Of a DNA stretch of 64,000 bases, positions 641 through 61,268 are shown piece by piece. This DNA comes from a virus. Position numbers and translations under genes: made by a program. The notes under the pieces were generated by a model, which searched no databases, was not told the origin of the DNA, and worked only from the letters and a program-made list of their open reading frames with translations. The stretch's first letter is position 1. Every line of letters starts with the position of its first letter. The stretch is taken from IMG/VR virus record IMGVR_UViG_2937877337_000001, positions 9,026-73,025 of that record; one strand, given 5' to 3'.

Positions 641-672
641 TTGCGTGATTTTCCCGTAAAAAGTGAAAATGG
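641..672. promoter_or_regulatory. TTCAC/GTGAA dyad motif copy (tttcactttttacgggaaaatcacg on minus strand) immediately 5' of the start codon
   Basis: Same motif family as at about 20 other intergenic sites. AT-rich in a GC-rich genome. Confidence 0.5.
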
Positions 673-702
673 GTGCGGCCGAAACCGCACCCAATTGCCG
701 GA

Positions 703-1401
703 TCAGATATCCAGATCGAAATCGTCCGACTTCGGCTTGCTCGATGTGCCCGAGGTCGAAGGGCCTTCGTCGAAGCTGTCGTCGGCTTCCAGCGTGTCGA
801 AATCGTCGTCATCCACGTAGATGCCGCCGCCGCCGAGACGATCGCCGACCTGGCGCGAGCGAATTGCTTCGACCGAGCAGGTAATGCGCGGCGTGCCGCC
901 GTTCTCGGTGCCGTACCACGACACGATCACGTCGCCGTAGGTTCCATTGTAGACGACTTCGGGGATTTCGCTGACTTCGATGACGCGCTTGTTGCGATCG
1001 CGAATCTGCGGGCGCTTGAGGCCACCACTCGGCCCCTTCGCACTGACGACAATGTTGCCTTCGTAACCCTTGTAGATTTCGCCGGCATCCGTCTTGAACC
1101 GATCGCCCTTCTTGAAGGAAAGGTTATCGGGCTTGTCATCCCACAACTGCTTCCACCAGTCCTCTGGCTTCTTGAACTCGCGTCCCGCAGCCTTCATCGC
1201 GGAGATGCAGGCGGCCTTGTTGCTGTCGTAGTCCGGCGTGCCCTTTTCGAGAATGAAATTGGCGCCGTGCTTCGGCTTTGCATTCGGGTCCTTGTTCTTC
1301 TTCGGCAGCGACGCTGTATGCAGCGAGTCTGCGAAGGAGATGCGGACGTTCGTCAAGGTGACGGTTCGGCCGGTTTTGTCTTTCTCGTTTACTTTTCCCA
1401 T
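703..1401 (-). CDS. phage single-stranded DNA-binding protein, DUF2815 type, with acidic C-terminal tail (DDFDLDI)
   Basis: N-terminus MGKVNEKDKTGRTVTLTNVRISF is typical of DUF2815 phage SSBs. Gly-rich linker plus acidic C-terminal peptide. Sits in the replication module. Confidence 0.7.
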   Translation of the reverse strand: MGKVNEKDKTGRTVTLTNVRISFADSLHTASLPKKNKDPNAKPKHGANFILEKGTPDYDSNKAACISAMKAAGREFKKPEDWWKQLWDDKPDNLSFKKGDRFKTDAGEIYKGYEGNIVVSAKGPSGGLKRPQIRDRNKRVIEVSEIPEVVYNGTYGDVIVSWYGTENGGTPRITCSVEAIRSRQVGDRLGGGGIYVDDDDFDTLEADDSFDEGPSTSGTSSKPKSDDFDLDI

Positions 1402-1437
1402 GGTCTCAGTTCCTTGGTATCTCGGTTGCTAGGTTTC

Positions 1438-2667
1438 TCAGGTTTCGGCGGTATCGAGGTCGTCAAAATCATCGTCCCACTGCACAAGTGCAGGCTTCGG
1501 ATGATCTTCTGGCACCAGCTTTGGCTTTCCCGGTGGACGAACCAGAAGGGTTTGCAGGGCCTCCCACGTCTTGGGATGACCTGCCCTTTTTCTACCCGGC
1601 TTGACGAGCTTTTCGATCTCGCCGATGCCGATGAGTTCTCGGGGCTTGTATGCCTTGTCGCCGAGTGCGGCGGTCAGCAGTAACTCACCCTTTTTGACAT
1701 CCTTGATGCGACGATCGCCAAGGTCGCCGTCGACTGCCTTCGAGCCCGGATCGGGCTTTCCATCCAGCGCGGCGCGCAGCGACTCGTCATGCAATTCGGC
1801 CAGTCTGGCACGAATGTCGGGAGCGTGCTTGACCACCAGCCAGCGGCGCTCGCCGACCAGGTTCTGCCGCTCGTAGCCGGGAATGATGGTGTTGGGCAGT
1901 TCTGGATAGGCGTCCGCCGCCATCTCCATCAGCCAGCGGTCACGCGGTGGACAGCCGCCAGGTGCCTTGCGAACTTCGCACCACTTGCAAGCTTTCTCGC
2001 TCGGCTTGAACTCGACATCGCCGGATTCAATCTTCGCGTAGACGGCCTTCATTTCCTCGCCGAACGCGAGCAGTTCGTCGAGCGTGATTTCCCAATACTT
2101 CATGCCGCCCGCGCGCGGCTGATCGATGTTGATCACGATCTTCTCGACGTGCGGGCGACCGAGGAAGTGCCACATGCCGAGGGCGTAAAGGCGCAACTGC
2201 TTGTTGCCTTTCGCGTCAACAGGAACGCCGGCCCCAAACTTCAAATCGGAGATGTAGAGCACGACGCCGGAACTGAGCGCGGTGCTTGACAGCCAGCCCG
2301 TGTCGCAGGTACCGAACTGATCCGGCAGCCATGGCGACAGGTCCACCTGGATTTCGACATGCGGCGCGCCAGTGTGCTCGCGGACCCAATCAATGCCGGT
2401 CTGCAGATGATCGGCCATCGTATCATCGACGACGTAGGTGAAACCGTCTGCGCTGATCGTGGCGCCGACGAAGTGCCGCGCATCCAGCCCGAAGACCAGA
2501 CACATCTCGCGGACTTCGTGCGCAACGGTGCCCTCGGCAGACCAATCAGACGCGTCTCGATCGCCGATTGCGCCGTCAACATGCAGCTTGTCGAGCAGCC
2601 CCACGGATGCTGTGCATGTTGACCAGCGATCGCAGCCGGAAGGGGAGAGACGCGCGTGCGAACCCAT
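1438..2667 (-). CDS. DUF2800-family PD-(D/E)XK (Cas4/RecB-like) nuclease with C-terminal Cys cluster
   Basis: 409 aa. CDRW...C near the N-terminus and CKWCEV...GGC near the C-terminus are typical of DUF2800 phage exonucleases. Acidic C-terminus DDDFDDLDTAET. Adjacent to DUF2815 SSB and PolA, as in known phage modules. Confidence 0.65.
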   Translation of the reverse strand: MGSHARLSPSGCDRWSTCTASVGLLDKLHVDGAIGDRDASDWSAEGTVAHEVREMCLVFGLDARHFVGATISADGFTYVVDDTMADHLQTGIDWVREHTGAPHVEIQVDLSPWLPDQFGTCDTGWLSSTALSSGVVLYISDLKFGAGVPVDAKGNKQLRLYALGMWHFLGRPHVEKIVINIDQPRAGGMKYWEITLDELLAFGEEMKAVYAKIESGDVEFKPSEKACKWCEVRKAPGGCPPRDRWLMEMAADAYPELPNTIIPGYERQNLVGERRWLVVKHAPDIRARLAELHDESLRAALDGKPDPGSKAVDGDLGDRRIKDVKKGELLLTAALGDKAYKPRELIGIGEIEKLVKPGRKRAGHPKTWEALQTLLVRPPGKPKLVPEDHPKPALVQWDDDFDDLDTAET

Positions 2668-2945
2668 CAGAAAGGAATCTCGCCCATCGGTTCAGGGATT
2701 GAACGTGGCCGCGCCTCTACATCAACGATGTATATGGGTTCATGCCGAACACCCCGTTCGTCGATGATATGGAGACAGCCTTCCTCGCCCTCGTGGAGAA
2801 CACCTCGCCACGCGCCGTTGATGACATAGAAGGCATGTGCCGTTCCAAATTCGGCTTGGATGCGGCGGTCAGTCGGAGCGCCGCCGAGCCAAGCGATTGT
2901 TCCTGGCGTGAGTTCGTCGAAGGCGATGTGACGGGAGATTTCCAT
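2667..2945 (-). CDS. hypothetical protein (92 aa)
   Basis: ORF trimmed to MEISRH at 2945, which shares 1 nt with the upstream stop (TAATG coupling). Confidence 0.4.
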   Translation of the reverse strand: MEISRHIAFDELTPGTIAWLGGAPTDRRIQAEFGTAHAFYVINGAWRGVLHEGEEGCLHIIDERGVRHEPIYIVDVEARPRSIPEPMGEIPF

Positions 2946-4046: not shown

Positions 4047-4203
4047 TGCTGTCTCCTTGTTTTCGAGGCGCTTGAGAAGCGAGCGGGAGGCCGCAGGGAA
4101 ACAGCCCGCATCCGAGAGCTTGGGAGGACAATTCTCGGAGCCCGCTCGCCACCGAAGCGCCTCCCGGCGTGCTGCCGGGAGGACTGCGACAGGCGAATTC
4201 GGA

Positions 4204-4719
4204 TCAGAGGTCGAGGTCGTCGTTGGACTTCTTCGGCGCCTCGGTGATGTCGCCCTTGGCGATGAGCTTCGCCACCTGGTCCTTGAACAGCGGGATCGCC
4301 GATTCCATGATGTGGTCGGCTGCCGATGCCTTCTCGACATCCGGCTTCTTGATCTTCTCGTGGTTCAGCAGGTTGCGCATCTTCTCCTTGCGCGCCTCGC
4401 GTTCCTCGGGGCGATCGGTGCCGGTGATGTAGCCGGCGATCAGGTCCTTGATGCCCTCATAGGGGTTGGTGCGGTTCTCGGGATCGGTCGAAATCTGACC
4501 CTTGCCGGCATCCTCGCCCTTCGTTTCGTCCTTCTTGCCGGCGTCGTCCTTCGCCTTGTCCTTGCCCTTGCCGGTGGCGGCGACTGCGGCTGTCACCTTC
4601 TCGACGGCATCGGTGCGCAGGGACAGCAAGTCCTTGGTGGCAGCGAGAAGAGCGTTGGTGGCGGCGGTGCTTTCTTTCAGTGCGGCCGTGTGTTCGGCGA
4701 TTACAGCTTCGAGGCTCAT
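4204..4719 (-). CDS. hypothetical phage protein (171 aa), Lys/Asp-rich, C-terminus NDDLDL
   Basis: First gene of the minus-strand replication operon, leaving the divergent control region. Acidic C-terminal peptide as in SSB. Confidence 0.55.
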   Translation of the reverse strand: MSLEAVIAEHTAALKESTAATNALLAATKDLLSLRTDAVEKVTAAVAATGKGKDKAKDDAGKKDETKGEDAGKGQISTDPENRTNPYEGIKDLIAGYITGTDRPEEREARKEKMRNLLNHEKIKKPDVEKASAADHIMESAIPLFKDQVAKLIAKGDITEAPKKSNDDLDL

Positions 4720-4739
4720 AGTGTCTCCTGGTGGATGGG

Positions 4740-4885
4740 TTGAAAATCACGATTAACGTGAATGCATGGTCGTTAAATCACGTTTAAAGTCACGTTTCAA
4801 GCCCCATGTGCAATAATTTCACGTTTAACTTGATTTTGCGGAACAGCGGCGTTAAGGTCGCCTCAAATCCAACCAAGGGGACGTG
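4740..4885. promoter_or_regulatory. divergent control region with at least 4 copies or half-sites of the TCACG(T/A)-TTAA-ACGTGA motif
   Basis: cacgattaacgtgaat / aatcacgtttaaagtcacgtttcaag / atttcacgtttaacttg lie between the minus-strand operon (start 4719) and the plus-strand operon (start 4883). Confidence 0.55.
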
Positions 4886-5227
4886 ATGGAACCGAATTCA
4901 CAGTCGGCGGAACCGAAGCCAGCCTATACCGGCCGCCCGCGCAAAGACGACAACTTCAAATTCTACGATGGCGCTTTGAACAAACTCCTGCTCGACAAGC
5001 TGCCATCGGCCTGCATCAAGTTTGGCCGCATCGACACGCTCGCGCTGGCCAAGGCCACGGGGAACGCCCGTTTCACCATCTACCGGTGGCTGAATGAGCA
5101 GAGACTTTCCAAGAATGCCATCCGGTCGCTGCTCAAGGTCTCTGCCGAGACCGAGGAACGCAAGAAAAAGGGCAAGTTGAAGAAGGACGATCTGATCCCC
5201 TTCTTCGATCTCGGCGACGACCTCTGA
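4883..5227 (+). CDS. small HTH DNA-binding protein (putative transcriptional regulator), C-terminus FFDLGDDL
   Basis: Helix-turn-helix-like segment IDTLALAKATGNARFTIYRWLNEQ. AAGGGGA ribosome-binding site. First gene after the operator-rich region. Confidence 0.55.
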   Translation: MMEPNSQSAEPKPAYTGRPRKDDNFKFYDGALNKLLLDKLPSACIKFGRIDTLALAKATGNARFTIYRWLNEQRLSKNAIRSLLKVSAETEERKKKGKLKKDDLIPFFDLGDDL

Positions 5228-5249
5228 TTCCCGCAGGGGAAGGCGTAAC

Positions 5250-7796: not shown

Positions 7797-7822
7797 ATTG
7801 ACCCGCTTCGGCGGGTTTTTTC
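7797..7822 (+). terminator. rho-independent terminator after the primase gene
   Basis: gacccgcttcggcgggtc stem followed by a T6 run. Confidence 0.6.
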
Positions 7823-7829: not shown

Positions 7830-8320
7830 ATGCAATCTGTTGCATGATGGGTTCCATCGCATCTGCGCTTTTCCGCGAAATGGAATGTATTCCACTTTCT
7901 CCCCGCCATTCTCAGCCTCTCACGCTCTCAGGCGGATTCCCATATAGTTTGCAGCGGCACCTTACGACCAGTCGGCTAGGCGTATGCCTCTCCTTCAGAT
8001 CCTCCTTCTTATAAACTATATCTATTTTAGGGTGAGAAGGCTGAGAGAGTGAGACAGTACTGATTTAATTGAGCTTTTTCGCTCACCCTAGTCAAAATGA
8101 GACTGAGAATGACTGAGAAGCGGTTTTGCTGCGCCGAATTTAACCGAAATCACGTTAAGATTGAAATATTCCCATCTGCTACCCCGTTTTCGTGAGCATT
8201 CCTCATATTTCCGGGGGATTGTGAGTGATCCTCACGTTTGATCTCGTTTCTCTGCGCTGAATTTCACATTTCGCGTGAATCGCGCTCAGCGCCTCCCGCA
8301 GCCGATCGACCCACCCAGGA
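7830..8320. other. putative origin of replication: AT-rich non-coding region with iteron-like CTGAGA(A/G) repeats and an AGGGTGAG / CTCACCCT inverted repeat
   Basis: No credible ORF. tgagaaggctgagagagtgagac and aatgagactgagaatgactgagaag direct repeats. Inverted repeat about 50 bp apart at about 8028 and about 8088. Additional TTCAC motif copies at 8150-8280. Lies immediately downstream of the initiator/primase gene. Confidence 0.35.
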
Positions 8321-8625: not shown

Positions 8626-8710
8626 CTCGACCTGGCAGCATCGAGCACGGCAGCCTCGACCACGGCAGCGCCTCGACCACGGCAGCGCCTCGACCACGGC
8701 AGCGCCTGGC
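8626..8710. repeat. 17-bp tandem direct repeat (cgaccacggcagcgcct), 3 perfect and about 2 degenerate copies
   Basis: Read directly at 8641-8710. GC-rich. Sits in an otherwise non-coding stretch next to the AT-rich iteron region. Confidence 0.75.
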
Positions 8711-9010
8711 CGCTGGCAAGCCCGAGCACATGGCGCAATGCTACCAGGCAGCGCGGCAGCCGGCTCGGGCAGCCATGGAAGGAATCCCGCGCGCGGCCTG
8801 AGATCACATTCCCGCGCCTCGGCAGCGATAGCGCGGCACGGGCAAAAGCTGGACGCATGGCCAAGCGCAACAATGCGCCGGTAGACATTGCCCTAGCTGG
8901 CGCCGCGCCTTGGAATGAGCGCTATATCACCACGGCAAGCCCGAGCGACTTCCACGCTTCCGGCTATCGGTTCGAACGGTTGGAATAGACCGCTTGACTC
9001 GGCAGCTAGT

Positions 9011-9033
9011 TTCACGTTTAATGTGAAAGTCAC
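9011..9033 (+). promoter_or_regulatory. dyad motif tTCACGTttaatGTGAAagtcac, 16 nt upstream of the 9050 start
   Basis: Near-identical copy at 11444-11468. Confidence 0.55.
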
Positions 9034-9049
9034 TAAACGGAGTCACGCT

Positions 9050-9589: not shown

Positions 9590-9613
9590 TTCACCTTTAA
9601 CGGGAGATTCACC
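9590..9613 (+). promoter_or_regulatory. motif variant TTCACcTTTAACGGGAGATTCACc ending 1 nt before the ATG (the GGGAGA doubles as the ribosome-binding site)
   Basis: Same 24-mer again at about 9856-9880, about 12782-12805 and about 28605-28628. Related copy at 26113-26136. Confidence 0.55.
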
Positions 9614-9614: not shown

Positions 9615-9866
9615 ATGCTTGCCAAATTGCTTGCAACCGCTTGCGCCACGGGCATTAGCGCCTTTGCGCTTGTGTATCGCATTCCAGCCCTGCCCGAGAC
9701 GGCGCCACGGTTCGAAGTTCGAGTCGTCACCTATGACGGGCAGCTATTCATTGCCGGAAGCGGCGACGATTGCCGCGCGGCATGGCAAGGCGCCGAAGTG
9801 CCGAAGGGCTGGCAGTCAATCGAATGTGTCGACGCAAATGCGCCGCGCTTCGCCTTTCACTTTTAA
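9615..9866 (+). CDS. small exported protein (83 aa) with N-terminal signal or lipoprotein-like segment
   Basis: MLAKLLATACATGISAFALV signal-like N-terminus. Motif plus ribosome-binding site directly upstream. Confidence 0.5.
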   Translation: MLAKLLATACATGISAFALVYRIPALPETAPRFEVRVVTYDGQLFIAGSGDDCRAAWQGAEVPKGWQSIECVDANAPRFAFHF

Positions 9867-9882
9867 CGGGAGATTCACGACG

Positions 9883-10465: not shown

Positions 10466-11431
10466 ATGAATGACCTGCTTTTGAACGCGTATCGCTTCCA
10501 CCGCTTTGAAGCTGTTGGAAACGTCTATCCTGCCCGCAAGGGATATCGCCGACACAATCCCGCGAATGAGGCGCTAAAGGCTGCCCGTCGCGACGTTGCG
10601 GCCTATGCCGAGGCGCTTGCAGCCGGCGACACGAAAACCGCAAGCCGGTTCCGGCGATATCCGCGCGACCATTACGCGGCCGTGACATGGCAGAAGCGCG
10701 ACACTGAGTCCCCTTCCTATGCCAAACGTGCCGAGTGCATTGCATTCGTCCAGGATTTCAGCGGCGCCGGCTTGCGCCATGTTGGCAACGTGGAAGCCGA
10801 TACACCGCGCGGCAAGATTTGGAGCAACCGCGACTCCTGCGGCTGGTATAGCGACTATGACCAATCGGAAACGATTTATGGAGTCGTCTATCAGCTACCA
10901 GGCCGCGACGGCAAAGCGCGGTTTGTGGCAGGCTATGCCAGCGCGGGAGATTGCGACGGGCTGCCGACTCTCGACTTCGGCGCAGTCTATTCCGAAGATA
11001 TGCGCGGCGATCGATACAATGAAAGCGCGCAAGATTTGGACGCTGCCCGCGACGCTGCCCGAGCGGCCGATTCCATGGCGCAAAGCGCGGCCGAAGATGA
11101 ACGGGCATATAAAGCCGCTTGGCAGGCTGGCAGTCAGTTTGCCGAGCGTGCCGAGACCATTGCAGCCAATCGCAAAGCCGCGCTTGAATTGCTTGCCGAG
11201 CGGCGCCGCGCTGCCACGGCAGGCAAAGGCGAGGCATTCCAGGCGATTTGCGGCGCGATCCGCGACAAGGTGGACTCGTTGCTTGCCGAGATCGCAGAAG
11301 CCCGAGCCGAGCGCAAAAAGCTAAAGGCCGGCGACTATATCAGCGAATGGCTGCCCGGCTTCTATAGCGGCGACAAGCGGTTAAAATCGGCTTTTAATGA
11401 AGGCGCCGGCAAAACCATTTTCCCCTGTTGA
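10466..11431 (+). CDS. hypothetical protein (321 aa)
   Basis: ATG at 10466 with AAGGAG ribosome-binding site. The longer ORF from 10241 overlaps the upstream gene. Confidence 0.6.
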   Translation: MNDLLLNAYRFHRFEAVGNVYPARKGYRRHNPANEALKAARRDVAAYAEALAAGDTKTASRFRRYPRDHYAAVTWQKRDTESPSYAKRAECIAFVQDFSGAGLRHVGNVEADTPRGKIWSNRDSCGWYSDYDQSETIYGVVYQLPGRDGKARFVAGYASAGDCDGLPTLDFGAVYSEDMRGDRYNESAQDLDAARDAARAADSMAQSAAEDERAYKAAWQAGSQFAERAETIAANRKAALELLAERRRAATAGKGEAFQAICGAIRDKVDSLLAEIAEARAERKKLKAGDYISEWLPGFYSGDKRLKSAFNEGAGKTIFPC

Positions 11432-11443
11432 CTCGCAACGTGA

Positions 11444-11468
11444 TTTCACGTTTAATGTGAAAGTCACG
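11444..11468 (+). promoter_or_regulatory. dyad motif tTTCACGTttaatGTGAAagtcacg
   Basis: Duplicate of the 9011 copy. Followed by GGAG and ATG at 11486. Confidence 0.55.
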
Positions 11469-11624: not shown

Positions 11625-11643
11625 TTTCACGATTAACGTGCAT
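11625..11643 (+). promoter_or_regulatory. motif copy TTCACGaTTAACGTGc
   Basis: Followed by AAAGGAG and ATG at 11665. Confidence 0.5.
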
Positions 11644-11664
11644 ATCAACAAAAGGAGTCATGCC

Positions 11665-12756: not shown

Positions 12757-12804
12757 CCGTTTTTCGGTTAATCCACCTTTCACCTTTAACGGGAGATTCA
12801 CGCT

Positions 12805-15333: not shown

Positions 15334-15337
15334 ATTG

Positions 15338-16320: not shown

Positions 16321-16365
16321 TTTTTCACTTGACGGGTTAGAGATATTCACGTTAAAAGTGAAATT
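16321..16365 (+). promoter_or_regulatory. motif pair ttttCACTTgacggg... aTTCACGTtaaaaGTGAAat
   Basis: Followed by GGGAGA and GTG at 16384. Confidence 0.5.
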
Positions 16366-16383
16366 AGCACAGGGAGACAGATC

Positions 16384-19912: not shown

Positions 19913-19960
19913 TTTCACTTTTAAATTGACATTCACCATTATTCGTGTGAATTGAACCAT
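19913..19960 (+). promoter_or_regulatory. motif pair cTTTCACTTttaaaTTGACAttcacc...gtGTGAAttg
   Basis: Followed by a possible 34-aa TM micro-ORF at 19977..20081 and the gene at 20071. Confidence 0.45.
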
Positions 19961-21850: not shown

Positions 21851-22497
21851 GCGAAGCATTGCTCCTACACCCGTCGCGCCATCCGACAATTCCAATCTTC
21901 AACTTCGAACGGGAGCCCCGTAACATGCATTTCATTCTCGATTGCGACGGCGTGCTGCTCGACTGGACGCGCGGCTTCCGGCATTGGGTCTTTGCCAACC
22001 ACGGAATCAAGCCGAGCGCCACCGGCCCACGTTCCTGGTCGCTGTTCAAATGGCTGGGCCAGCCCGAGGCGCGCTGTTTCGAACTGATCCAGGAATTCAA
22101 CGCGTCGCAGGCATTCGGCGAACTTTATCCGCTGGACGGTGCCAAGGATGCTGTCGCCAAGCTCAAGGCGGCCGGCCACAAGCTGACCGTGCTGACAAGC
22201 TGCTCGGACGATCCTTTTGCGATCAAGCGCCGCAAGCAGAACCTCGATCGCGAGTTCGACGGCGCCCTCGATCGCGTCATCTGCCTCGCCCTTCGCGAGA
22301 GCAAGTCCGCCTGGCTCGAAGTGCTGCGCGGCGGCATCTGGATCGAGGACAACTACAAGAACGCCATGATGGGCGTAGAGGCCGGCCACAAGACGATCAT
22401 GTTGCGGCAGTCGCACAATCGCGACGACGAACGCAGCACCGATCCCCGCATCCACTGGGTCGATGATTGGCGTCCGGTGATTTCACTTTTTAGTTGA
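21847..22497 (+). CDS. 5'(3')-deoxyribonucleotidase-like HAD-superfamily hydrolase (NT5C-like)
   Basis: MHFILDCDGVLLDW gives the HAD DxDG(V/T) motif I in the NT5C configuration. Start at 21847 (ATGA-coupled) or 21925. Confidence 0.5.
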   Translation: MSEALLLHPSRHPTIPIFNFEREPRNMHFILDCDGVLLDWTRGFRHWVFANHGIKPSATGPRSWSLFKWLGQPEARCFELIQEFNASQAFGELYPLDGAKDAVAKLKAAGHKLTVLTSCSDDPFAIKRRKQNLDREFDGALDRVICLALRESKSAWLEVLRGGIWIEDNYKNAMMGVEAGHKTIMLRQSHNRDDERSTDPRIHWVDDWRPVISLFS

Positions 22498-22522
22498 TTT
22501 TCACTCAGTAACGTGAAAGTCT
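22478..22522 (+). promoter_or_regulatory. motif pair gaTTTCACTTtttagttgaTTTTCACtcagtaACGTGAAagtc
   Basis: Followed by AGGAGA and ATG at 22542. Confidence 0.5.
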
Positions 22523-26112: not shown

Positions 26113-26136
26113 TTCACGTTTAACGGGAAAGACACG
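26113..26136 (+). promoter_or_regulatory. motif variant TTCACGTTTAACGGGAAAGACACG ending 3 nt before the ATG
   Basis: Same family as 9590. Confidence 0.5.
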
Positions 26137-26952: not shown

Positions 26953-27200
26953 TGAGCCGCCGTCCTTTCAGAGCCGCAGCGCTCCACTTCCTGGTGCGGC
27001 GCTTTGTCAAGTCGGTCGACGGCAACTGCACCTATCGCGAGATCGAGGAAGGCACGGGAATCAACCGCGAGACGGCGCGTCGCATCTGCCATCGCTACGG
27101 CTATCCGATCGAGCACGATCGCGCAGCCCTGCCGCCTCCGGTCATGGCCGTTGACAGATTTATGGCTACCGGACGCACTTTCTCCCGCAATTCGTATTGA
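26949..27200 (+). CDS. small HTH-like DNA-binding protein (83 aa)
   Basis: CTYREIEEGTGINRETARRICHRYG. ATGA-coupled. Confidence 0.45.
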   Translation: MMSRRPFRAAALHFLVRRFVKSVDGNCTYREIEEGTGINRETARRICHRYGYPIEHDRAALPPPVMAVDRFMATGRTFSRNSY

Positions 27201-27209
27201 CGGGCTCAA

Positions 27210-27234
27210 TTTCACGTTTATAGTGATTTTCACC
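27210..27234 (+). promoter_or_regulatory. motif copy TTCACGTTTAtaGTGAttTTCACc
   Basis: Followed by GGAGA and ATG at 27251. Confidence 0.5.
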
Positions 27235-28601: not shown

Positions 28602-28630
28602 GAGTTCACTTTTAACGGGACATTCACGAG

Positions 28631-33760: not shown

Positions 33761-33810
33761 TTATCGCACGTTCAAACGTGATTATCAAGTTAAACGTGAT
33801 TTTATGCCAC
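33761..33810. promoter_or_regulatory. motif copies aACGTGAttatcaagttaaACGTGAtttt in the divergent lysis / acyltransferase intergenic region
   Basis: AT-rich. Lies between minus-strand 33725 and plus-strand 33861. Confidence 0.5.
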
Positions 33811-39571: not shown

Positions 39572-39597
39572 CGTGATTGTCACGTAAAACGTGATTT
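39572..39597. promoter_or_regulatory. motif GtCACGTaaaACGTGAtttt inside the late operon
   Basis: Perfect TCACGT-N3-ACGTGA dyad. Confidence 0.5.
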
Positions 39598-45372: not shown

Positions 45373-45413
45373 CTTTCACGTCTGAAAAGTGAAAATACCG
45401 TCTAACGTGAAAA
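45373..45413. promoter_or_regulatory. motif pair TTTCACGTctgaaaaGTGAAaataccgtctaACGTGAAaa between tape measure and distal tail genes
   Basis: Inside the late operon. Confidence 0.5.
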
Positions 45414-50705: not shown

Positions 50706-50735
50706 TTCGTGATTATCACGTATAACGTGATTTTC
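50706..50735. promoter_or_regulatory. motif TCGTGAttaTCACGTataACGTGAtttt upstream of major tail gene
   Basis: Perfect dyad TCACGT-ata-ACGTGA. Confidence 0.5.
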
Positions 50736-54487: not shown

Positions 54488-55731
54488 TTAGCCCTTGACC
54501 ATTGCGAGCGTCTTTGCGGCGCGGCTCATTTCCGTTTTGTCGGTTTCGGCGTTGGCGTCGGACTCGATGCCGGCGCCTTGGCCGCGCATGGCGTCACGCA
54601 GCATTCCTTCCGGTGCGCCTGCCGTGGGCTTGGACTCTTCGCCCAAGGTGGCGAGGAACGCGCCCGCTTCGTCAGCGGACATGCTGGTCTTGAGGGCGGC
54701 GTTGAGCGCGGCGGTCGGCCGAGTTTTGCCGGCGTCGGAGCCGAGGATCGCGCTGATGCGAGCCATTGCTTCAGCCGCGCCCTGCTTGATGCCTTCCGCG
54801 AGACCTTCGGCCTTACCGGCTGCCTTGGAATTGTCGAGGTCGACCTGGGTGAGTTCGGCCATTTGTTCATCTCCTTCTGAGAGTGTGGCCCCAAAGGCCG
54901 TGATAGCGTCGTCAAGGGCTCCGATTTCATCTGCCAAGCCGTTGTCGATCGCCTGTTGAGCCATGAAGGTGCGCGCGCCGGTCGCGTTGACCGCCTCGAC
55001 ACTCATGTCCCGGTTTCTCGCCACCGAAGCGGCGAATTGCTCGTGGAATGCATCCACGCGCTCCTGAATCCGCTCGCGCGCCCCCTCGGACAGTTTCTCG
55101 TAGGGGTTGCCCTCCATCTTGTCGGGCTGCGAGCGGATGATGTTGACCGTGATGCCCGCTTCTTCGAGCATCTTGGAATATTCGACGGCGACCACGACGA
55201 CGCCGATGGAGCCGACGCCACCAGTGCGGGCGACCGTGATATGATCACTCGCGGAAATGATGTTGTAGGCGGCCGAGTAGGCGTGTTCTGCGGCGAAGCC
55301 ACGGATCGGCTTCTTGCCTCGGAACGCGTAAATCTTGTCCACCAGGTCGAAGTTGCCCGAGACCATGCCGCCGCCAGAGTTCACGACCAGGGCGATGCCC
55401 TTGACGTTGGTGTCCTCGACGCCGCGCTTGATGGCCTGGTAGATATACTCGTAACCGGTCGCCCACGCCCCGTATGCGTAGGGGAAGTCGTTCAGCAGAA
55501 GGCCCTTCACCGGCACGTGGAGGATGCCGTTCTTCACGACGTAAGGGCGAAGGTATGAGCGCCAGTCGTCGCTCGCATACCAGAAGTTGTCATCTGCCTT
55601 TTCAGCACCGGCCTTCTCGATGACGCCCATGCGCTCGCCGAAAGCGCTCAACAGCGTCTGCAGCCAAGCGCCCTGCCCCTCGTCGATGAGTGCGGGCTGA
55701 TCCTGGAATTGTGCGATGATAGGGTTCACTG
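54488..55731 (-). CDS. S49-family (ClpP-like) prohead protease fused to scaffold region (lambda gpC/Nu3-like)
   Basis: GTG at 55731 with GGAGG ribosome-binding site, overlapping the portal stop (GTGA). ALVVNSGGGMVSG...HAYSAAYNIISA serine-protease core. Ala/Glu-rich C-terminus. Confidence 0.75.
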
Positions 55732-57405
55732 CTTGCCTCCATCGCTTGGCGTGGCCGTAAGCGCGTTCTGCATGTCTTTGCTGTTCTGGTCGTAGATCGA
55801 CGGATTGCCGTAGGACTCGTCGAGCTTGCGCTCGCGGGCGATCTGGCGAGCGGTCTTGCGCCAGTCGCCGCCTGACATTTTGGCGATCTCGATTTCCTTG
55901 GTGGAAAGGCCGTTCACGATCTTGAGGACCGCAGCCTGCGTTTCCTTCAACGGATCGATCTGACCTTGGCCGGCGCCGATCCACTCGCACGCGCTGAACG
56001 CCTCGGCGTTGAGTCCGTCATAGAAACGCGGCACGTCGCGGCGCTTGAAGCACTCAAGTTCGTTGTAGTTGATCGCTTCCTCAAGCCAGAGGCGATAGAC
56101 GAAGTTCGCCACCTTGTCGGCGACGGCTCGCTTGATCGCCATCATGGTCTTCAAGGTCTCGCCGAGCGATGCTCGGGCCGACGAATAGTTTGTCTGCGTG
56201 TAGTCGCGCGACAACTGCTCGTAGGAAACGCCAAGCGCAGCCGCGATGTAGCGCAGCAAGCTCTGCTCGAACTTGTCGCCGGCCGGGCTGTTCGCACCGG
56301 GGTTCTGGATTTTGAGTTTGGTGCCAGGTGCAAAGATCGGAATCTTCGCGCCATCCATGTGCAGGTTCTTGGCGCCGCTGGCGTACTCGGAAATCGTATT
56401 TAGGTACGCGTTCATCCAGGTCGTCGTTGCGTTGCCGTCCCCGGCACCAGCGCCGAGGGCTGCCGACACGTCCTGCGGAATCTCTGACTCGATCGACGCG
56501 GCATAGGTCGCTGCAACGACGGCTCGTTCCAGTTCCGTCTTGCGGAAGTGCTTGGTCATCCGCATTTCGCTGAGCGCGGACACCATTGCCGCCACGCCGC
56601 GCGTCTGATCGGGACGCAGTTCCTCGAAGACGTGGTTGATGATCATCCGGCCCCACGACTTGCGGGCAGGAATGCGCTTCCATGTCGGCGTCACGATCAA
56701 ATTCGAGCGATAGTCGCTCGGATGCGCGTTGCGAATGTAATAGGCGATCGGTGCGCCGAAGGTATCGGACTCGACACCCTTGCGGAGTCGGCTGCCCTTG
56801 TACGGCGTAAAAATGCGGTCGCGCGGGTCGGACAGCCGAGCCGGATCGATCATCTGCACGGCGCTTGCGAACGGTCGGCCATCGTCGAACCATTCGGCCG
56901 ACTGCAACACTTCGCCGCTCATCAGATGCACACCAACCGCGAGACGAACGATATCGGTCAGGGTCTTGGTGCGCCTGGCATCGGGCCAGCACTGATCGCT
57001 CTCAGCCCACAGCGTGAACTTGGTCTCGATTTCTTCCTGCGCCTCGGCTTCCCACTTCTCGTCATCCTTGCCGAACAGGACTTTGGTTTCCGGCTTGGCG
57101 TTCAGAAGAAAACGGGTGCCGACGATCGAGTCCTTGCGGATTGTCGCGCCGCCAGACACGTAGGCGTCGTTGCGCACCGTATCGAGCGCACGGGCATCCA
57201 GGTCGTCCTTGAGCGGGAGCAGATCGGCATCAGCCGAACGCAGCGCGGGCTGCCAGCCTGCGAGCCGGTTCAGCTTGTCGGCGCCGTCATAGGCGACACC
57301 GCCCGCTGCCACCGCCGAGGCAACGGGCGGCTGCACTACCTGGATCGCCGGGGAGACACCGGCATCCGATCCAAGCAGGTCCGAGAGATCGAGGTTGCCG
57401 CTCAT
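55726..57405 (-). CDS. portal protein, lambda gpB-like; N-terminus MSGNLDLSDLLGSD
   Basis: About 560 aa. Trimmed to the Met immediately after the gpW stop. Confidence 0.75.
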   Translation of the reverse strand: MSGNLDLSDLLGSDAGVSPAIQVVQPPVASAVAAGGVAYDGADKLNRLAGWQPALRSADADLLPLKDDLDARALDTVRNDAYVSGGATIRKDSIVGTRFLLNAKPETKVLFGKDDEKWEAEAQEEIETKFTLWAESDQCWPDARRTKTLTDIVRLAVGVHLMSGEVLQSAEWFDDGRPFASAVQMIDPARLSDPRDRIFTPYKGSRLRKGVESDTFGAPIAYYIRNAHPSDYRSNLIVTPTWKRIPARKSWGRMIINHVFEELRPDQTRGVAAMVSALSEMRMTKHFRKTELERAVVAATYAASIESEIPQDVSAALGAGAGDGNATTTWMNAYLNTISEYASGAKNLHMDGAKIPIFAPGTKLKIQNPGANSPAGDKFEQSLLRYIAAALGVSYEQLSRDYTQTNYSSARASLGETLKTMMAIKRAVADKVANFVYRLWLEEAINYNELECFKRRDVPRFYDGLNAEAFSACEWIGAGQGQIDPLKETQAAVLKIVNGLSTKEIEIAKMSGGDWRKTARQIARERKLDESYGNPSIYDQNSKDMQNALTATPSDGGKQ

Positions 57406-57617: not shown

Positions 57618-57629
57618 CGGTCATCCAGC

Positions 57630-57666
57630 GTGAATTTCACGTATAGATACCGTAAACGTGAAACTA
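57630..57666. promoter_or_regulatory. motif TTTCACGTatagataccgtaaACGTGAAa between TerL and gpW genes
   Basis: Inside the late operon. Confidence 0.5.
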
Positions 57667-57705
57667 AAGCAATATAGAATTGATTTTCAATAATATAGTG
57701 AAATT

Positions 57706-59889
57706 CTAGGCGAGCTTGGCCGCGAGGTCTGCGAATGTCATTTCACCCTTCTTTGCCGTGGTTGGCTGAGCCACTGCCTCGCCGCCGAACACGAGATCGT
57801 TCTCATCCCACGGCGCAGCCCATCCGGGCGGCTCGTCGTAGTTCAGCCGATCGATGTTGAAGGTGACATAAGGCACCGTATTTTCCAGCGGCCGGATCGC
57901 CAGGCCGAGCGCATAGTACGCCAAGTCGAACGCTTCGTTGCGGCGCTTGCGCGGGTTTTCCCAGCCCTTCTCAGTCCGTATTTCCGTGGTCATCTGGTTG
58001 TAGAACCATTCGGGCATCCAGTCGGGGAATCGCAACATGCCGCCAACGGTGTCATCAGCGCCGGTATCCTCGACGCGGCGCGCCAGCATGACCGAGAGGC
58101 GATCCTTCATCAGGTTCGAATTGAGCAGGATCACCGGCACGTCGCCCTTGGCGATGGCGAGTTTTCCCTTCTGGCTGGAATCCGGCCAGGTGGTGCTCGC
58201 GTGCGGCTTGGTCTTCGACGGTTCACCCTTGATCAAACAGAACCGACGATGCAACCCGTCTCCCTGCTGCCGCAGCCGGCGCCAGAAATTATAGGCGTGA
58301 CCCGTGACACCCTCGGCGCCGCCCGAGTCACTTCCGGTCGCCCGGATACGCATTCGCCGGCCGCTGCCGTCCGCCAATGGGTAGGTTTTCAGGATGACCT
58401 GTTCTTTCAGTACATCCCAATCCTCGGCGAACGCGGCCGGGTCAATTGGCAGTTTCTCGCCAGCGCCGTTGAGACGATCCGACAGACGCACCTTGAAGCC
58501 GTCGATCACCACCATGTCGCCGGTCGCAGTGAAGCCGTGCACCTGGACGACAAACGCGGACTTCTGCACGTCAACCGTGGCAATCGCAAAACGAACGCCG
58601 TGCGGCACCGATGGTTCGTCCTCGGTCGATCCCCAGTCCTCGGCATTGGTCTTCAGGTCTTCCGGCGACCGCTCGGACAGGCGCGACGCGGGAATGTAAT
58701 AGGAGCCCTGGTCAGTCGTGACCGTTTTGCGCAGCGGCGCGTCGTCGCCAGTGTCGGCCAGCGCCTTGATCGCCCGCAGATGCTTTTCGACCAGTTGGCC
58801 CCAATCCTGATAGGCCGCAGCCGGCCCCTTCATCCAGAATGACGCGATGCTCGACCGCGCTGCCTTCATGCCGTTGCGCTCGACGATCTTCTGCTCGGCA
58901 GGCAGCCAGATCAGGCCGTCCTTCACCCAGCGTCCACCCTCGTTGAGTTCGTCCTTCATCTGAGGCTCAAGCACGCCGCCGCACTGGTACGTCGGACAGA
59001 GCATGTATGTCTGCTCGCGCGCCTCCATGATGTCCTCGCTATCGGGATAGCGAAGCAGCTTGAAGTCGGGTTCGAACGCCTCATTGCAATGCGGGCACGA
59101 CCAATACCAGCGGCGCCGGTCGCCACGGTTGTACAGTTCGAAAATGCCTCGGATCGGCGGCGCCTCGTGCGGGGTGCTTGGCGACCACTTTGGATCAGTG
59201 ATCTCCTTGTTCGGGTTTGGCGATGCCTCCGCGAAGGTCATGCCGAATCGCTTGAACGTCGTCGTTCGCATCTGCGCCAAGTCAAAGGGGTTGCCTTCGC
59301 CGTCTACGTTGTCGTCCATGCGCTCGTAGTCGATCAAGCCGACGCGCGGCATGGTGATGCCGGACAGGTTGCTGGCCGTTGGATAGGTCAACAGCAAGCG
59401 CATCCCCGAATCGAATTCCTTGTCGAAGGTGTTGTCGTCCTTGCGGTGTTTAAGCTGGTGCTCGCGGACAGATGTCGATGCCTGCAAATAGCGCTCAAGA
59501 TCGCCCTTCGACCACTTGCGCGCGTTCTCGCGATCCATGTGCACGAGCATCATGTCGGCCGGATCGGTCATGACAGTGTGCGATGTCCAATTCAGATGGA
59601 TCATCGTCTTGCCCGTTCGAGCGGGACCGATGAAAACGCAGCCCTGAAAGTCGAGGCTGGTCAGTTCGTCCTGCGGCTCTTGAATGTAGGGCGTGCGCTT
59701 GCGAGACCACTTGACGCTGTGACCGCCGCCGCTTCCGATGCGGGTGTATTCCTCCGCAGCCTCGGTGACGCTCATGCGCTTTTGCGGCTGCAAGGTCTCG
59801 AAGCCGCGAGCAACGATGCTCTCTATGGTCTGATGCTTCGCTTCAGCTATCAGTTCCGCCACTGATGGCGGTCGCATTCTCGCGGTCAT
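57706..59889 (-). CDS. terminase large subunit, GpA family
   Basis: 727 aa. Walker A FIGPARTGKT. Cys cluster CPHCNEAF. Lambda-like arrangement, so cos-type packaging is likely. Confidence 0.8.
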   Translation of the reverse strand: MTARMRPPSVAELIAEAKHQTIESIVARGFETLQPQKRMSVTEAAEEYTRIGSGGGHSVKWSRKRTPYIQEPQDELTSLDFQGCVFIGPARTGKTMIHLNWTSHTVMTDPADMMLVHMDRENARKWSKGDLERYLQASTSVREHQLKHRKDDNTFDKEFDSGMRLLLTYPTASNLSGITMPRVGLIDYERMDDNVDGEGNPFDLAQMRTTTFKRFGMTFAEASPNPNKEITDPKWSPSTPHEAPPIRGIFELYNRGDRRRWYWSCPHCNEAFEPDFKLLRYPDSEDIMEAREQTYMLCPTYQCGGVLEPQMKDELNEGGRWVKDGLIWLPAEQKIVERNGMKAARSSIASFWMKGPAAAYQDWGQLVEKHLRAIKALADTGDDAPLRKTVTTDQGSYYIPASRLSERSPEDLKTNAEDWGSTEDEPSVPHGVRFAIATVDVQKSAFVVQVHGFTATGDMVVIDGFKVRLSDRLNGAGEKLPIDPAAFAEDWDVLKEQVILKTYPLADGSGRRMRIRATGSDSGGAEGVTGHAYNFWRRLRQQGDGLHRRFCLIKGEPSKTKPHASTTWPDSSQKGKLAIAKGDVPVILLNSNLMKDRLSVMLARRVEDTGADDTVGGMLRFPDWMPEWFYNQMTTEIRTEKGWENPRKRRNEAFDLAYYALGLAIRPLENTVPYVTFNIDRLNYDEPPGWAAPWDENDLVFGGEAVAQPTTAKKGEMTFADLAAKLA

Positions 59890-60608
59890 TCGTCACCAGG
59901 GATCATCGTGGGCCGCGTGTCGGTGTCGGCCAGTTCCTTCTCGATCTCGCGAGAATGCGCGTTGGTCTGAAATTCGCGCGGGAAGTCTTCGAGCTTCGTC
60001 TTGATCTGCGCGTTCATGTCGGCCACGCGATCGACGAGGAAGTTGTACTGCTCGTCGCTCAGCTTCTCACGGCCGGGCATATCCTCGATCCACATCTTGC
60101 TCTCGTGCCGGATCAGCATCGAGACGCGGGCGAAGGTCATCAGCACATCTTCATCGTGCCAAAGCTGGCCGGCCGCCGTGAGCGCCCGGATGCGGGCGTT
60201 GGTCATCTCCCAATATGCCTTGGAAACGATTGGCGGAAGCGACGCCTGGTTCTGCTGCGCCAGCCAGTCTTCGATGCTGCCCTGTGGCGCGATCAGATAC
60301 GACATTGCCGTGAGGAAATCGTACATCGGCTGCTGCTTGCCGCCGTGAGTTGTCCAGTCTTCGACGGGACAGCGTTCGAGCCGCTTCTGAATTTGCTTGG
60401 GATAGGCGCCGAGAATGTTGGCGAAGAAGGTCACACCCTGCGGGCGACGGAATTCCGTGTAGTGAGGCAGCTTCTTCGCAGCCTGCTCCTGCAGCCGGCG
60501 CGCTGCTTCTTCCTTGGTCGGTCGGCCGCGCCTGGGGCGACCCGCATCAGGATTGTATGCCGGCTCGTCGTCGCCGAGCAGGTCGGAGAAGTCGTTGTCT
60601 TCGATCAT
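59886..60608 (-). CDS. terminase small subunit (putative); N-terminus MIEDNDFSDLLGDDE
   Basis: Trimmed to the ATG at 60608. Immediately upstream of TerL (ATGA-coupled). Basic DNA-binding-like N-terminal region. Confidence 0.5.
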   Translation of the reverse strand: MIEDNDFSDLLGDDEPAYNPDAGRPRRGRPTKEEAARRLQEQAAKKLPHYTEFRRPQGVTFFANILGAYPKQIQKRLERCPVEDWTTHGGKQQPMYDFLTAMSYLIAPQGSIEDWLAQQNQASLPPIVSKAYWEMTNARIRALTAAGQLWHDEDVLMTFARVSMLIRHESKMWIEDMPGREKLSDEQYNFLVDRVADMNAQIKTKLEDFPREFQTNAHSREIEKELADTDTRPTMIPGDE

Positions 60609-60764
60609 CCGTCGTCCCTGTCCAACTCGTCGAGGAACGGGCTCCGCTCCACCGCGCCGCCGCTGCCGCAAAGATCAGGGTGCCAGCGGCGCCCGTATGG
60701 CCCTTTCTCAGGAAGCCATTTCTTCCGTTGCGGCTGTTCCCGCTTGGGCTGCGGTTCGGATTTG

Positions 60765-60947
60765 TCAGCCACCGAAGACCGCCTTCTGATAAGCAATGAC
60801 TTCGCTGGCCCGCCACACCGAAACCTTGTGCGATCTCCGCGTCTGCCTCGGGAATTTGCCGGCCTTGATCTGGCGATAGATTTCGCTTCGAGAGAGCCCG
60901 GTGATCGCGATGACCTGCGGGAGTCGAAAGCTTTGGTCGATGTCCAT
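60765..60947 (-). CDS. AlpA-family HTH regulator/excisionase-like protein (60 aa)
   Basis: LPQVIAITGLSRSEIYRQIKAGKFPRQTRRSHKVSVWRASEV matches the AlpA/Phage_AlpA fold. Confidence 0.55.
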   Translation of the reverse strand: MDIDQSFRLPQVIAITGLSRSEIYRQIKAGKFPRQTRRSHKVSVWRASEVIAYQKAVFGG

Positions 60948-61027
60948 TTCACGTCTCCAAGTGCTGCTATCTTGATAGTCACTTTTAACGTGACAATCAA
61001 GCAGAAACACGATAAACGTGAAACATC
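60947..61027. promoter_or_regulatory. cluster of at least 3 motif copies (TTTCACGTct..., gTCACTTttaACGTGAca, aCACGAtaaACGTGAAa) upstream of the AlpA-like gene
   Basis: Read directly. Confidence 0.5.
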
Positions 61028-61268
61028 AGGTCGGACGCTGAACCCGAAACGATGGAGAGTTCGTACCGCCAGGGGCGGGGTGAGCGTCAGTCCCGCATTG
61101 CGATTGTTAAGGAGGCGACCATGACTTAGGCGGCTAAAACCGCCCTCAACCTGAATTTTTCGATTGTGAAAAGGTCGTCCGAGTCAGAACCGGGCGGCCT
61201 TTTTGCTATGTGTCGGTCTCAAGCCTATATACGTGGAGTCTTTCCACGGTCGAGCAGGCACAGGCAGT

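Follow-up and report, generated by a model that had tools for sequence, protein, structure and literature searches.

Oriented TCAC dyad modules upstream of start codons in a temperate Chi-like prophage of Mesorhizobium: a conserved repeat family with putative promoter/operator function

A stretch of 64,000 nucleotides of viral DNA (IMG/VR record IMGVR_UViG_2937877337_000001, positions 9,026 to 73,025; hereafter the window) contains some 26 copies of a short dyad with an AT-rich centre, most of them placed just upstream of a start codon and oriented toward the gene that follows. The window sits in a 759,813-bp Mesorhizobium sp. contig (GCA_004792105.1) and is a temperate Chi-like (Casjensviridae-type) prophage of Mesorhizobium; a preliminary description of the DNA, made from its letters alone, had correctly guessed a phage of Rhizobiales. 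The repeat family is genuine, statistically solid and evolutionarily conserved. Our favoured interpretation, to which we give about half of our confidence, is that the copies are promoter/operator modules under a putative phage-encoded dimeric regulator.

The preliminary description had reported a pervasive motif, TCACGT-N3-ACGTGA, and both its enrichment against shuffled controls and its intergenic bias were confirmed. Allowing up to two mismatches, the window contains 25 matches against 2.56 +/- 1.44 expected from dinucleotide shuffles, and none of 100 shuffles reached 25. The exact palindrome TCACGTNNNACGTGA is found twice, at 39580 and at 50716 (the latter previously placed at 50713), with 0 expected in the whole window, and the bare dyad TCAC-N7-GTGA is found 9 times versus 0.94 expected. 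An unbiased 8-mer scan of the whole window ranked pieces of TTTCACGTTTAACGTGAA at the top, with CACGTTTA, TCACGTTT, TTCACGTT and TTTCACGT as the leading words, and an oriented 25-nt weight matrix identified 24 loci versus 0.1 in shuffles. Twenty of the 25 dyad matches are intergenic, while the non-coding share of the window is 10.8% (binomial P=1.5e-15; the underlying gene map is crude, drawn from codon usage and checked with Pfam), and the other five are coding, which is about the chance expectation. Curation gave about 26 loci, and three further copies are located just left of the window in the source contig.

Every gene previously said to follow a copy does so, namely those at 639(-), 9050, 9615, 9883, 11486, 11665, 12805, 16384, about 19977, 22542, 26140, 27251 and 28631 and the AlpA-like gene. 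Copies are likewise present at the divergent junctions 4740-4885 and 33761-33810 and at the sites named within the late operon (39580, 45396, 50716 and 57637-57701). Copies at 8150, 8278(-), 19915, 22483, 57701(-) and 61021(-) are additional to that list. A subclass thought to be identical over 24 nt at four sites, TTCACYTTTAACGGGAGATTCACS, is exact at 9590, 9856 and 12779, and the copy at 28605 differs by one mismatch (GGGACA).

When the copies are aligned toward the downstream gene, the element is not the simple 15-bp palindrome first described, rather an oriented unit of about 23 nt, tTCAC(G)-TTWAA-(C)G(T/G)GA-nnn-TCAC(g), in which a third TCAC follows 18 nt after the first. Of the two arms the left is well conserved and the right degenerate (CGTGA, TGTGA, AGTGA, CTTGA or CGGGA), and the centre between them is AT-rich. 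The module stands immediately 5' of about 20 gene starts and is always oriented toward the downstream gene; in 12 of 12 informative cases the direction of the third half site is that of the sole gene start within 100 nt (P=2.4e-4). The motif had been described as ending 1-20 nt before the ATG. Measured from the 15-bp dyad, the distance to the start codon in fact falls into two classes, 9-12 nt and 22-31 nt, and only the third half site reaches to 2-5 nt from the ATG. In the 9-12 nt class (666(-), 9591, 9857, 12780, 26114 and 28606) the module is fused to the ribosome-binding site (RBS): the right arm is CGGGAG(A), the half site having been altered to GGGAG, 8 nt from the ATG, and it is the sole Shine-Dalgarno (SD) candidate. 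The earlier observation that GGGAGA coincides with the SD position is thereby supported, and the idea of a combined control element fused to the SD fits this class. The 22-31 nt class comprises 9012, 11446, 11627, 16347 and 27212 on the forward strand and 4761(-), 39594(-), 45410(-), 50730(-), 57661(-) and 60993(-) on the reverse, each with a separate GGAG. Proximity to the start codon is kept despite hundreds of non-coding bases on the 5' side (9012, 16347, 26114). Lone TTTCAC words are also found 5' of other ribosome-binding sites, at 10447, 24859 and 27548.

Judged by its sequence, the dyad centre is a sigma-70 -10 hexamer, because TTGAC lies 16-18 nt upstream of it in 17 copies from five phages. 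This spacing was obtained from 84 matrix matches in ten genome sets, for which any upstream TTGAC was located: counted from its first base to the dyad centre, the distance has a sharp peak at 25 nt (n=13), with further copies at 24 nt (n=3) and 26 nt (n=1), and the control word GTCAA gave no distance peak at the same sites. Within the window the copies at 9012, 11446 and 16347 have the box at N17, and that at 27212 reads TTGACG-N16-TATAGT; a strict consensus promoter scan misses these promoters, as it demands A at position 2 of the -10. The promoters at 9012 and 16347 are located 3' of intrinsic-terminator-like hairpins (7800-7817 and 15337-15361) and gaps of about 1 kb. In promoter-bearing copies position 11 is T and not C, a departure from the palindrome that yields TTTAAT or TTAGAT, a better -10. 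Late copies have GATAAT or GACAAT at motif positions 14-19, and L017 (48% terminase identity; L numbers are our labels for the genomes compared) carries TATCAC-TATAAT-AGTGATA, a consensus -10 inside the dyad. The remaining copies in the window, about 20, have no TTGAC at the proper spacing, and their centres (TTTAAC etc.) are without A-11 and/or T-7.

The same spacing and the TATAAT centre of L017 would also be accounted for by a pure promoter family, that is, a long core promoter distributed as a portable cassette and used by the host RNA polymerase with no phage factor, the dyad symmetry being incidental. The G(G/T)GA directly after the hexamer resembles the GGGA discriminator, an element known for sigma-A/sigma-70; moreover, the 9012 and 11446 cassettes are nearly identical over about 45 nt, and the geometry gives leaders of about 20 nt that end in SD and ATG. 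We give this explanation a low probability, given that arms of 5-7 bp are mirrored around the -10 and are perfectly palindromic at 39580 and 50716, that the dyad also lies over a -35 box and in a spacer, that most copies have no -35 and weak hexamers, and that the start predicted for RBS-fused copies would lie 3' of their conserved GGGAG.

With respect to the -35 and -10 the dyad takes three registers: on the -10, in the spacer (promoter of the AlpA-like gene), and at about -40 over the -35 (helix-turn-helix (HTH)/primase operon). A register that moves in this way is typical of an operator, a site for a regulator, and not of a fixed part of a promoter. The spacer register bears on a different proposal, in which the modules are antiterminator loading sites of the Q, AlpA or GafZ type and a small HTH protein binds the dyad by a -10-like pause and then rides the polymerase. 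The GafZ palindrome fills the -35/-10 spacer of the Caulobacter gene transfer agent (GTA) promoter (PMC11150451), as does the dyad at the head of the late operon here, and the P. aeruginosa AlpA element likewise lies in the -35/-10 spacer (PMC9371919). Like the dyad, the GafZ element opens a late cluster of phage origin in an alphaproteobacterium; unlike the module, it is a single, GC-rich site. The -10-like centres inside operons could induce sigma-dependent pauses, and hairpin/T-run signals are present internally at 670-693 and 52784-52856. Known systems, however, have a single loading site where the window has about 26; Pfam and PHROGs revealed no GafZ-like or Q-like protein among those of the window; and the AlpA-like protein has only 60 aa, its orthologue in Rhodobacter phage RcMcDreamy being annotated as an excisionase. 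In P. aeruginosa AlpA the residues reading the element are numbered to H142, and an additional N-terminal ring enters the RNA exit channel (PMC9371919). A Q-like antiterminator role of AlpA was rejected on the size of the protein and the excisionase annotation, and antiterminator loading as a whole appears very unlikely to us. The hairpin at 52784-52856 (minus strand) is strong (about -22 kcal/mol), is followed by a T-run and stands within the late operon, immediately 3' of the major capsid gene; beyond four clear cases the hairpin/T-run scan for terminators was too noisy.

The palindrome does not behave as an RNA structure. Folds of 17 copies are weak (early z -0.8 to +0.7, late z -1.7 to -2.7), with energies of only -2 to -3.4 kcal/mol in RBS-fused copies. 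In an alignment of 60 copies from five genomes, pairing is seen in 71.4% of cells versus 70.5% with shuffled partners, and these copies contain no excess of double changes and no covariation beyond column composition. Neither an Rfam family nor a tRNA matched. An RNA hairpin or riboregulator was rejected on these results, as was a structured RNA element or intrinsic terminator, for which a stable hairpin with compensatory changes was not found. In the absence of a pairing signal the palindrome amounts to a pair of half sites conserved independently of each other, a signature of protein recognition or promoter function and not of base pairing. The absent covariation argues against RNA pairing; it is not in itself proof of protein binding.

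A role in translation, whether as mRNA enhancer, standby site or target of an RNA-binding regulator near the RBS, has some appeal given the strict sense orientation, the tight distance to the start codon, and the GGGAG within the module 8 nt from the ATG. In addition, TCAC stands between SD and ATG both here and in Ruegeria phage V16 (GGATTCACCCAATG), and every lineage (L006, L055, V16) has its own start-associated repeat. Translation-level action was proposed for the start-associated sequence (SAS) repeats of cluster K mycobacteriophages. Here it is unlikely: at complete promoters the transcript predicted from the -35/-10 would begin after the dyad, stable or covarying RNA structure is lacking, and copies occur far from starts (8150, 8278) and over a -35 at -40.

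The start-associated repeats of V16 (vB_RpoS-V16, L048) comprise five near-identical copies of GTCAACCGAAAGAGAAGGA(T/G/A)TCACC(CA)ATG and two partial ones at 4088-6837 and 12784. They precede small early genes, and their SD-TCACC-ATG ending is common to the RBS-fused class of the window. In L055 (IMGVR_UViG_3300037418_002260), seven gene starts between 8897 and 20301 follow (c)gacTCACTAAA(A/T)A(A/G)GGGAG, a repeat similar to the T7/T3 promoter core GACTCACTA(T/A)AGGGAGA, while the 22 kb of L055 contained no signature of a single-subunit RNA polymerase. A T7-like promoter was considered for the module itself, as RBS-fused copies and the L055 repeat (cgacTCACTAAAAAGGGGAG) resemble T7/T3 cores, and was rejected with no single-subunit polymerase gene found. 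The RNA_pol family is absent among the early proteins, six-frame scans of the window, RcCWillis and L055 gave no motif B/C signature, and the annotations of RcCWillis and RcMcDreamy list no such polymerase.

Gene content and order of the window match those of the Casjensviridae Rhodobacter phage RcCWillis. Common to both are a DNA polymerase, an Enc34-type single-stranded DNA-binding protein (SSB), a DUF2800/Cas4 nuclease, HTH and PrimPol/VapE proteins, a HerA-like ATPase, a GapR-like protein, a methylase, a metallophosphoesterase, and lysis, tail, capsid, portal and terminase genes. The module occurs at orthologous positions, in both its -35-bearing and RBS-fused classes, in L003/L016, L004, L009, L015 and L052, which are prophages or viral contigs with 55-75% PrimPol or 75-80% terminase identity; L009 is inside the complete chromosome of Mesorhizobium sp. 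AR07. Sites with orthologous placement include those before the GapR-like gene, the tail-tube gene, the gp46 orthologue and the lysis genes. RcCWillis (68.8 kb) has 17 matrix matches and 15 strict dyads, located before its GapR-like gene, tail-tube gene, gp46 and holin gene and at early promoters, and RcMcDreamy has 6 strict dyads. The tail-tube dyad is found with a TATAA-type centre, exactly or as a near variant, in L015 (TCAAG...AGTGA), L017, RcCWillis (TCACG...AAGTGC) and Ruegeria phage V16. When the divergent control regions of the window, L003, L004 and L009 are aligned, the modules are invariant and their flanks variable. Dialects follow lineage, with TCAC-ACATTGA-(T/G)(T/A)GA in L006, TTTCAAC in L054 and gacTCAC-TAAAAAG-GGGAG in L055, and the exact early-promoter core is confined to three IMG/VR contigs. 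In Salmonella phage Chi and in about 30 prophages that are more distantly related, the motif does not exceed chance level. The most over-represented 8-mer of phage Chi (L046/L047), with 28 copies versus 4.6 expected, is the Chi recombination hotspot of E. coli, GCTGGTGG. The papers on the Rhodobacter phages do not describe the module and mention neither promoters nor motifs.

Because Mesorhizobium and Rhodobacter phages have the core TCAC-N7-GTGA in common, it was also considered that the phage exploits sites of a host regulator such as CtrA; CtrA regulons are known in alphaproteobacterial phages (PMC9437464). This is the least probable of the explanations and one that we hardly credit. About 77 kb of other Mesorhizobium/Pseudaminobacter DNA, sharing only the PrimPol gene, has 6 weak matches against 24 in the window, and the centres differ by lineage. 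CtrA boxes were rejected, as TTAA-N7-TTAA occurs once in 64 kb, at 4773-4787. That single match lies in the divergent early control region, overlaps a motif copy and is not conserved in L003, L004 and L009.

At early promoters of RcCWillis (L001/L002, 59.0-65.3 kb) the TCAC dyad covers the -10 and another palindrome, TAGTCAAC-N-GTTGACTA, covers the -35; such double palindromes suggest two different regulators per promoter. They also bear on stoperator-type silencing, according to which the modules would be sites of an immunity repressor that blocks early promoters and elongating polymerase, as in mycobacteriophage L5. Stoperators are recognised by dispersed copies in short intergenic gaps, in one orientation to transcription, some of them overlapping early promoters (PMC9283540, PMC6550527). 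The same pattern is seen here, the 64 kb containing about 26 copies that are distributed over both early and late operons. The phage is temperate, L009 being part of a complete chromosome and the window part of a 760-kb Mesorhizobium contig, and variants by lineage occur in L006, L054 and L055, as relatives of L5 also have variant consensus sequences. In L5, too, one class of sites overlaps a core element of the early lytic promoter. L5 sites are, in contrast, asymmetric 13-mers that are read by a monomer and overlap the -35, whereas the module is a dyad with a third half site, centred on the -10, in a Chi-like phage of Alphaproteobacteria and with much tighter coupling to start codon and SD. 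No gp71-like or other repressor gene was recognised by Pfam and PHROGs in the window, which holds part of the prophage. The module stays at start codons even where space is not limiting, and phages of different host genera have the half site TCAC in common, which is not how immunity specificities behave. RcCWillis, moreover, combines its different -35 palindrome with a separately annotated immunity repressor. Stoperator-type silencing is accordingly improbable in our estimation, to about the same degree as a role in translation.

In design the module is closest to the L5 stoperators and to the cluster K SAS with its extended form (ESAS), and it is a member of neither family, since sequences, site symmetry, host and phage lineage all differ. 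The SAS/ESAS design consists of an SD-containing repeat and an imperfect inverted repeat with no RNA compensation (PMC3203893). The module resembles it in an asymmetric repeat that holds the SD a few nucleotides before the ATG, in an imperfect inverted repeat just upstream whose left arm is better conserved than the right, in departures that do not support RNA pairing, and in a consensus specific to each subcluster, comparable to the dialects described above. It is the design that is alike; sequence and lineage are not. SAS occur only at non-structural genes, whereas the module is also in the late operon and has a -35 at fixed spacing that marks the dyad centre as -10. The function of SAS/ESAS was still unverified in 2025 (PMC12699233). 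The cluster K consensus GGGATAGGAGCCC was searched for and rejected (3 matches at 2 mismatches versus 1.17 expected, all inside called genes).

The operators of lambda PR and PL have a similar half site, (TA)TCAC...GTGA(TA), and similarly overlap the -10 and spacer of early promoters; GTGATAAT, present at 50708-50730 and 33777-33799, is found in lambda PR too. The arms are separated by N7 here and N5 in lambda, about 26 dispersed sites contrast with two triplets, and no CI/Cro (HTH_3) protein was detected in the window. T4-type promoter early stem-loop (PeSL) cassettes and other phage promoter families also place a repeated promoter cassette before many small early genes, with some copies at mosaic junctions, as at 12780 and L004 18530, where the same downstream gene follows a different upstream gene. 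Unlike PeSL, most copies of the module have neither a stem-loop terminator nor a -35, and the module extends to the late operon.

If the copies are promoter/operator modules, the AT-rich centre would serve as the -10 hexamer for host sigma-70 RNA polymerase, and operon-opening copies with a TTGAC -35 16-18 nt upstream would be early promoters. The arms TCAC...GTGA, flanking or overlapping the -10, would most likely be the operator of one phage-encoded dimeric regulator controlling access to the -10. As the arms flank the -10, binding at early promoters should repress, while binding at -40 could activate. Copies without a -35 inside operons may be regulator-dependent internal or late promoters, or roadblocks for the same protein, and in RBS-fused copies the right arm, turned into GGGAG, would double as SD. 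The phage-wide operator or promoter code proposed in the preliminary description thus stands in so far as the repeats are DNA-level, intergenic, oriented and orthologously conserved; binding by a protein is read from their symmetry.

Several observations weigh against this interpretation. The binding protein was not identified, and the best candidate is without support from family or fold. Many centres (TTTAAC) have no canonical A-11 and T-7, so that copies without a -35 would be poor promoters alone. An operator with dyad symmetry has no need of a direction, whereas the element keeps a strict orientation and a close link to start codons, which fits a translation-linked role as well. In RcCWillis the second palindrome and the annotated immunity repressor indicate that the TCAC dyad there is probably not the immunity operator. 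L055 and RBS-fused copies keep TCAC-N7-GGGAG only, with no right arm.

A bolder version is that about 23 nt hold three signals in one, a -10, a factor-binding dyad and an SD, read by a small phage protein that reprograms the host polymerase. We find it doubtful. The polymerase would start, or resist termination, at every copy with no need of a -35, and in function the system would be analogous to T4 MotA/AsiA or to Q/GafZ loading. Such a code would be common to the alphaproteobacterial Chi-like clade, with TCAC-GTTTAAC-GTGA, TCAC-ACATTGA-TTGA and gacTCAC-TAAAAAG-GGGAG as its dialects.

The dimeric DNA-binding protein postulated earlier was likewise deduced from symmetry, and Pfam and PHROG searches over all early proteins identified no binder; a phage RNA polymerase, sigma factor or CI/Cro-type repressor was not recognised among the window proteins either. 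The best candidate, unproven, is the protein of 113 aa encoded at 4886-5227 (plus strand), given that it is the first gene of the primase operon, has three to four copies in its own control region and has homologues in motif-bearing relatives. It contains a predicted HTH, TGNARFT(I/V)YRWLNEQ, and the predicted recognition helix NARFT(I/V)YRWLNEQ is conserved among the homologues, which are found in L003 (by tblastn only), L004, L006, L009, L052 and RcCWillis (gp7), beside the primase in every motif-bearing relative examinable there. None was detected in L005, L053, L054, L055 or Chi, and a large protein database contained only 11, all Mesorhizobium-type. The preliminary description had listed this protein (as 4883..5227) among its HTH candidates; the predicted HTH agrees with that, while Pfam and PHROGs gave no match, and the AlphaFold model (predicted local distance difference test score 67) had no Foldseek match in the PDB at E<1. 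The second candidate, the AlpA/HTH_17 protein of 60 aa at 60765..60947 (minus strand), does belong to the family suggested for it (Pfam Phage_AlpA, 2.2e-11; PHROG 'excisionase and transcriptional regulator'). It is probably an excisionase rather than the binder, the RcMcDreamy orthologue being annotated 'excise' and adjoining the integrase. A further HTH candidate, 26949-27200 (83 aa), had only sub-threshold HTH matches, and GapR-type proteins are not known to bind dyads in a sequence-specific way.

The copies are described here by location. On the left, the RBS-fused TCACTTTTTACGGGAaaaTCACG (644..666, minus strand) has its dyad 12 nt 5' of the ATG of gene 307-639, is preceded by the terminator-like hairpin 670-693 and has orthologous copies in L003, L004 and L052. 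The copy at 4739..4761 (minus) is 27 nt 5' of gene 4204-4719, the first of the leftward replication operon, and forms a conserved block in the alignment of the window, L003, L004 and L009. Tandem half sites TCACGTTTAAAG-TCACGTTTCAAG follow at 4778..4801 (plus) in the divergent control region and overlap the sole CtrA-type match. The copy at 4819..4841 (plus) overlaps the -35 of the putative HTH/primase operon promoter (TTGATT 4830-4835, N17, TAAGGT 4853-4858), with its dyad centre at about -40; this block is also invariant among the same four genomes, between variable flanks, and L006 has the same frame with a variant centre. Orphan copies at 8150..8172 (plus) and 8256..8278 (minus, TCACGCGAAATGTGA) stand in the non-coding, origin-like region 3' of the primase gene, the second being conserved beside the iterons of the unrelated PrimPol elements L007 and L010.

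Four forward copies are joined to a complete sigma-70-type promoter. The first, at 8994..9034, has TTGACT at 8994-8999, N17 and a TTTAAT that lies within TCACGTTTAATGTGAaagTCAC; the ATG of gene 9050 is 23 nt after the dyad, and a 1.2-kb gap and the terminator 7800-7817 lie upstream. That at 11428..11468 (TTGACT, N17, TTTAAT; ATG 11486) is nearly identical to the 9012 cassette. At 16329..16369 (TTGACG, N17, TTAAAA; GTG 16384) the module stands after the terminator 15337-15361 and a 1-kb gap and has orthologues at L004 22109 and L009 20305. The fourth, at 27197..27234 (TTGACG, N16, TATAGT within TCACGTTTATAGTGA), precedes ATG 27251 of the GapR-like gene, and its orthologue lies before RcCWillis gp62 (54217-). 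The forward RBS-fused copies are TCACCTTTAACGGGAgatTCACC at 9591..9613 (ATG 9615), 9857..9879 (ATG 9883; orthologous copy at L004 14456), 12780..12802 (ATG 12805; at L004 18530 a copy precedes the orthologous gene), TCACGTTTAACGGGAaagACACG at 26114..26136 (ATG 26140) and 28606..28628 (ATG 28631, DNA methylase). Other forward copies are found at 11627..11649, which has no -35 box and a separate SD (ATG 11665); at 19915..19937 (TCACTTTTAAATTGAcatTCACC), 46 nt 5' of a possible GTG at 19976; and at 22483..22516, where two overlapping dyads, TCACTTTTTAGTTGA and TCACTCAGTAACGTGA, lie 44 nt 5' of ATG 22542 and overlap the end of the upstream gene.

All copies in the lysis and late regions are on the minus strand. 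At the head of the lysis genes, AAAATCACGTTTAACTTGAtaaTCACG (33777..33799) is followed by a second palindrome, CACGTTTGAACGTG, and RcCWillis has a copy before its holin gene gp50. The perfect palindrome TCACGTTTTACGTGAcaaTCACG (39572..39594) is 31 nt 5' of ATG 39548 and has orthologues before RcCWillis gp46 and RcMcDreamy gene 41. The copy at 45388..45410 follows the tape-measure gene, 29 nt 5' of ATG 45366, its left arm also matching the distal ACGTGAAA, and the second perfect palindrome, TCACGTTATACGTGAtaaTCACG (50708..50730), is 27 nt 5' of the tail-tube gene 49906-50688. Two copies occupy 57625..57701, between the large terminase and the gpW-like/portal genes (L016 7471); the arms of one are split by a 10-nt insert (TTTCACGTTTAC-GGTATCTATA-CGTGAAAttCACG). 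Two more, at 60971..61021, lie 5' of the AlpA-like gene at the head of the late operon (L016 4199), and the proximal dyad fills the spacer between TTGATT 60995-61000 and TATCAA 60972-60977 (N17).

The 1.27-kb non-coding region 3' of the PrimPol gene is probably a replication origin. Inverted clusters of iteron-like TCTCA(G/C)(C/G) repeats surround an AT-rich core at 7900-8120, and four to five tandem 17-bp repeats, GGCAGCGCCTCGACCAC, are found at 8618-8712. Elements that share only the PrimPol gene with the window (L005, L007, L008, L010, L011 and L012) have different iterons at the same place; their repeated words are clustered, origin-type iterons, which were rejected as versions of the module and constitute a separate feature. 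The protein at 26140-26952 has a MazZ-like dATP/dGTP diphosphohydrolase N-terminal domain (dGTP_diPhyd_N, PF18909, 5e-18), and no PurZ-type gene was found among the window proteins scanned. An acyltransferase_3 gene (33861-34991, plus strand; 6e-24), on the opposite strand inside the late/lysis region, is likely a lysogenic-conversion moron. An acidic peptide, D-[LF]-x-[DA]-L-L (NDLDDLLV, YDLSDLLN, DDFDLDI, MSGNLDLSDLLG), occurs 13 times in 10 of 85 proteins versus 0.14 expected from residue shuffles, mostly at the extreme C- or N-terminus, and looks like a shared docking motif. The proteins, which include an SSB-like protein, nuclease, primase, methylase, portal and small terminase, are encoded at 703-1401(-), 1438-2604(-), 5250-7775(+), 27574-27963(+), 27967-28362(+), 28362-28601(+), 28631-30034(+), 51881-52288(-), 55726-57405(-) and 59886-60608(-).

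If the promoter/operator interpretation holds, one module would organise the transcription, and partly the translation starts, of a clade of temperate phages of Rhizobiales and Rhodobacterales, and would supply ready promoter and operator annotations for genomes whose early genes are mostly unannotated. It would also point to a new regulator in a tractable system, as RcCWillis and the RcD phages exist as isolates that can be grown on Rhodobacter capsulatus. The three-signal code, if true, would give a first mechanistic handle on SAS/ESAS-like repeats. As a Gram-negative counterpart to the SAS/ESAS repeats and the stoperators, the module would make it directly testable why some phages mark many starts with one sequence.

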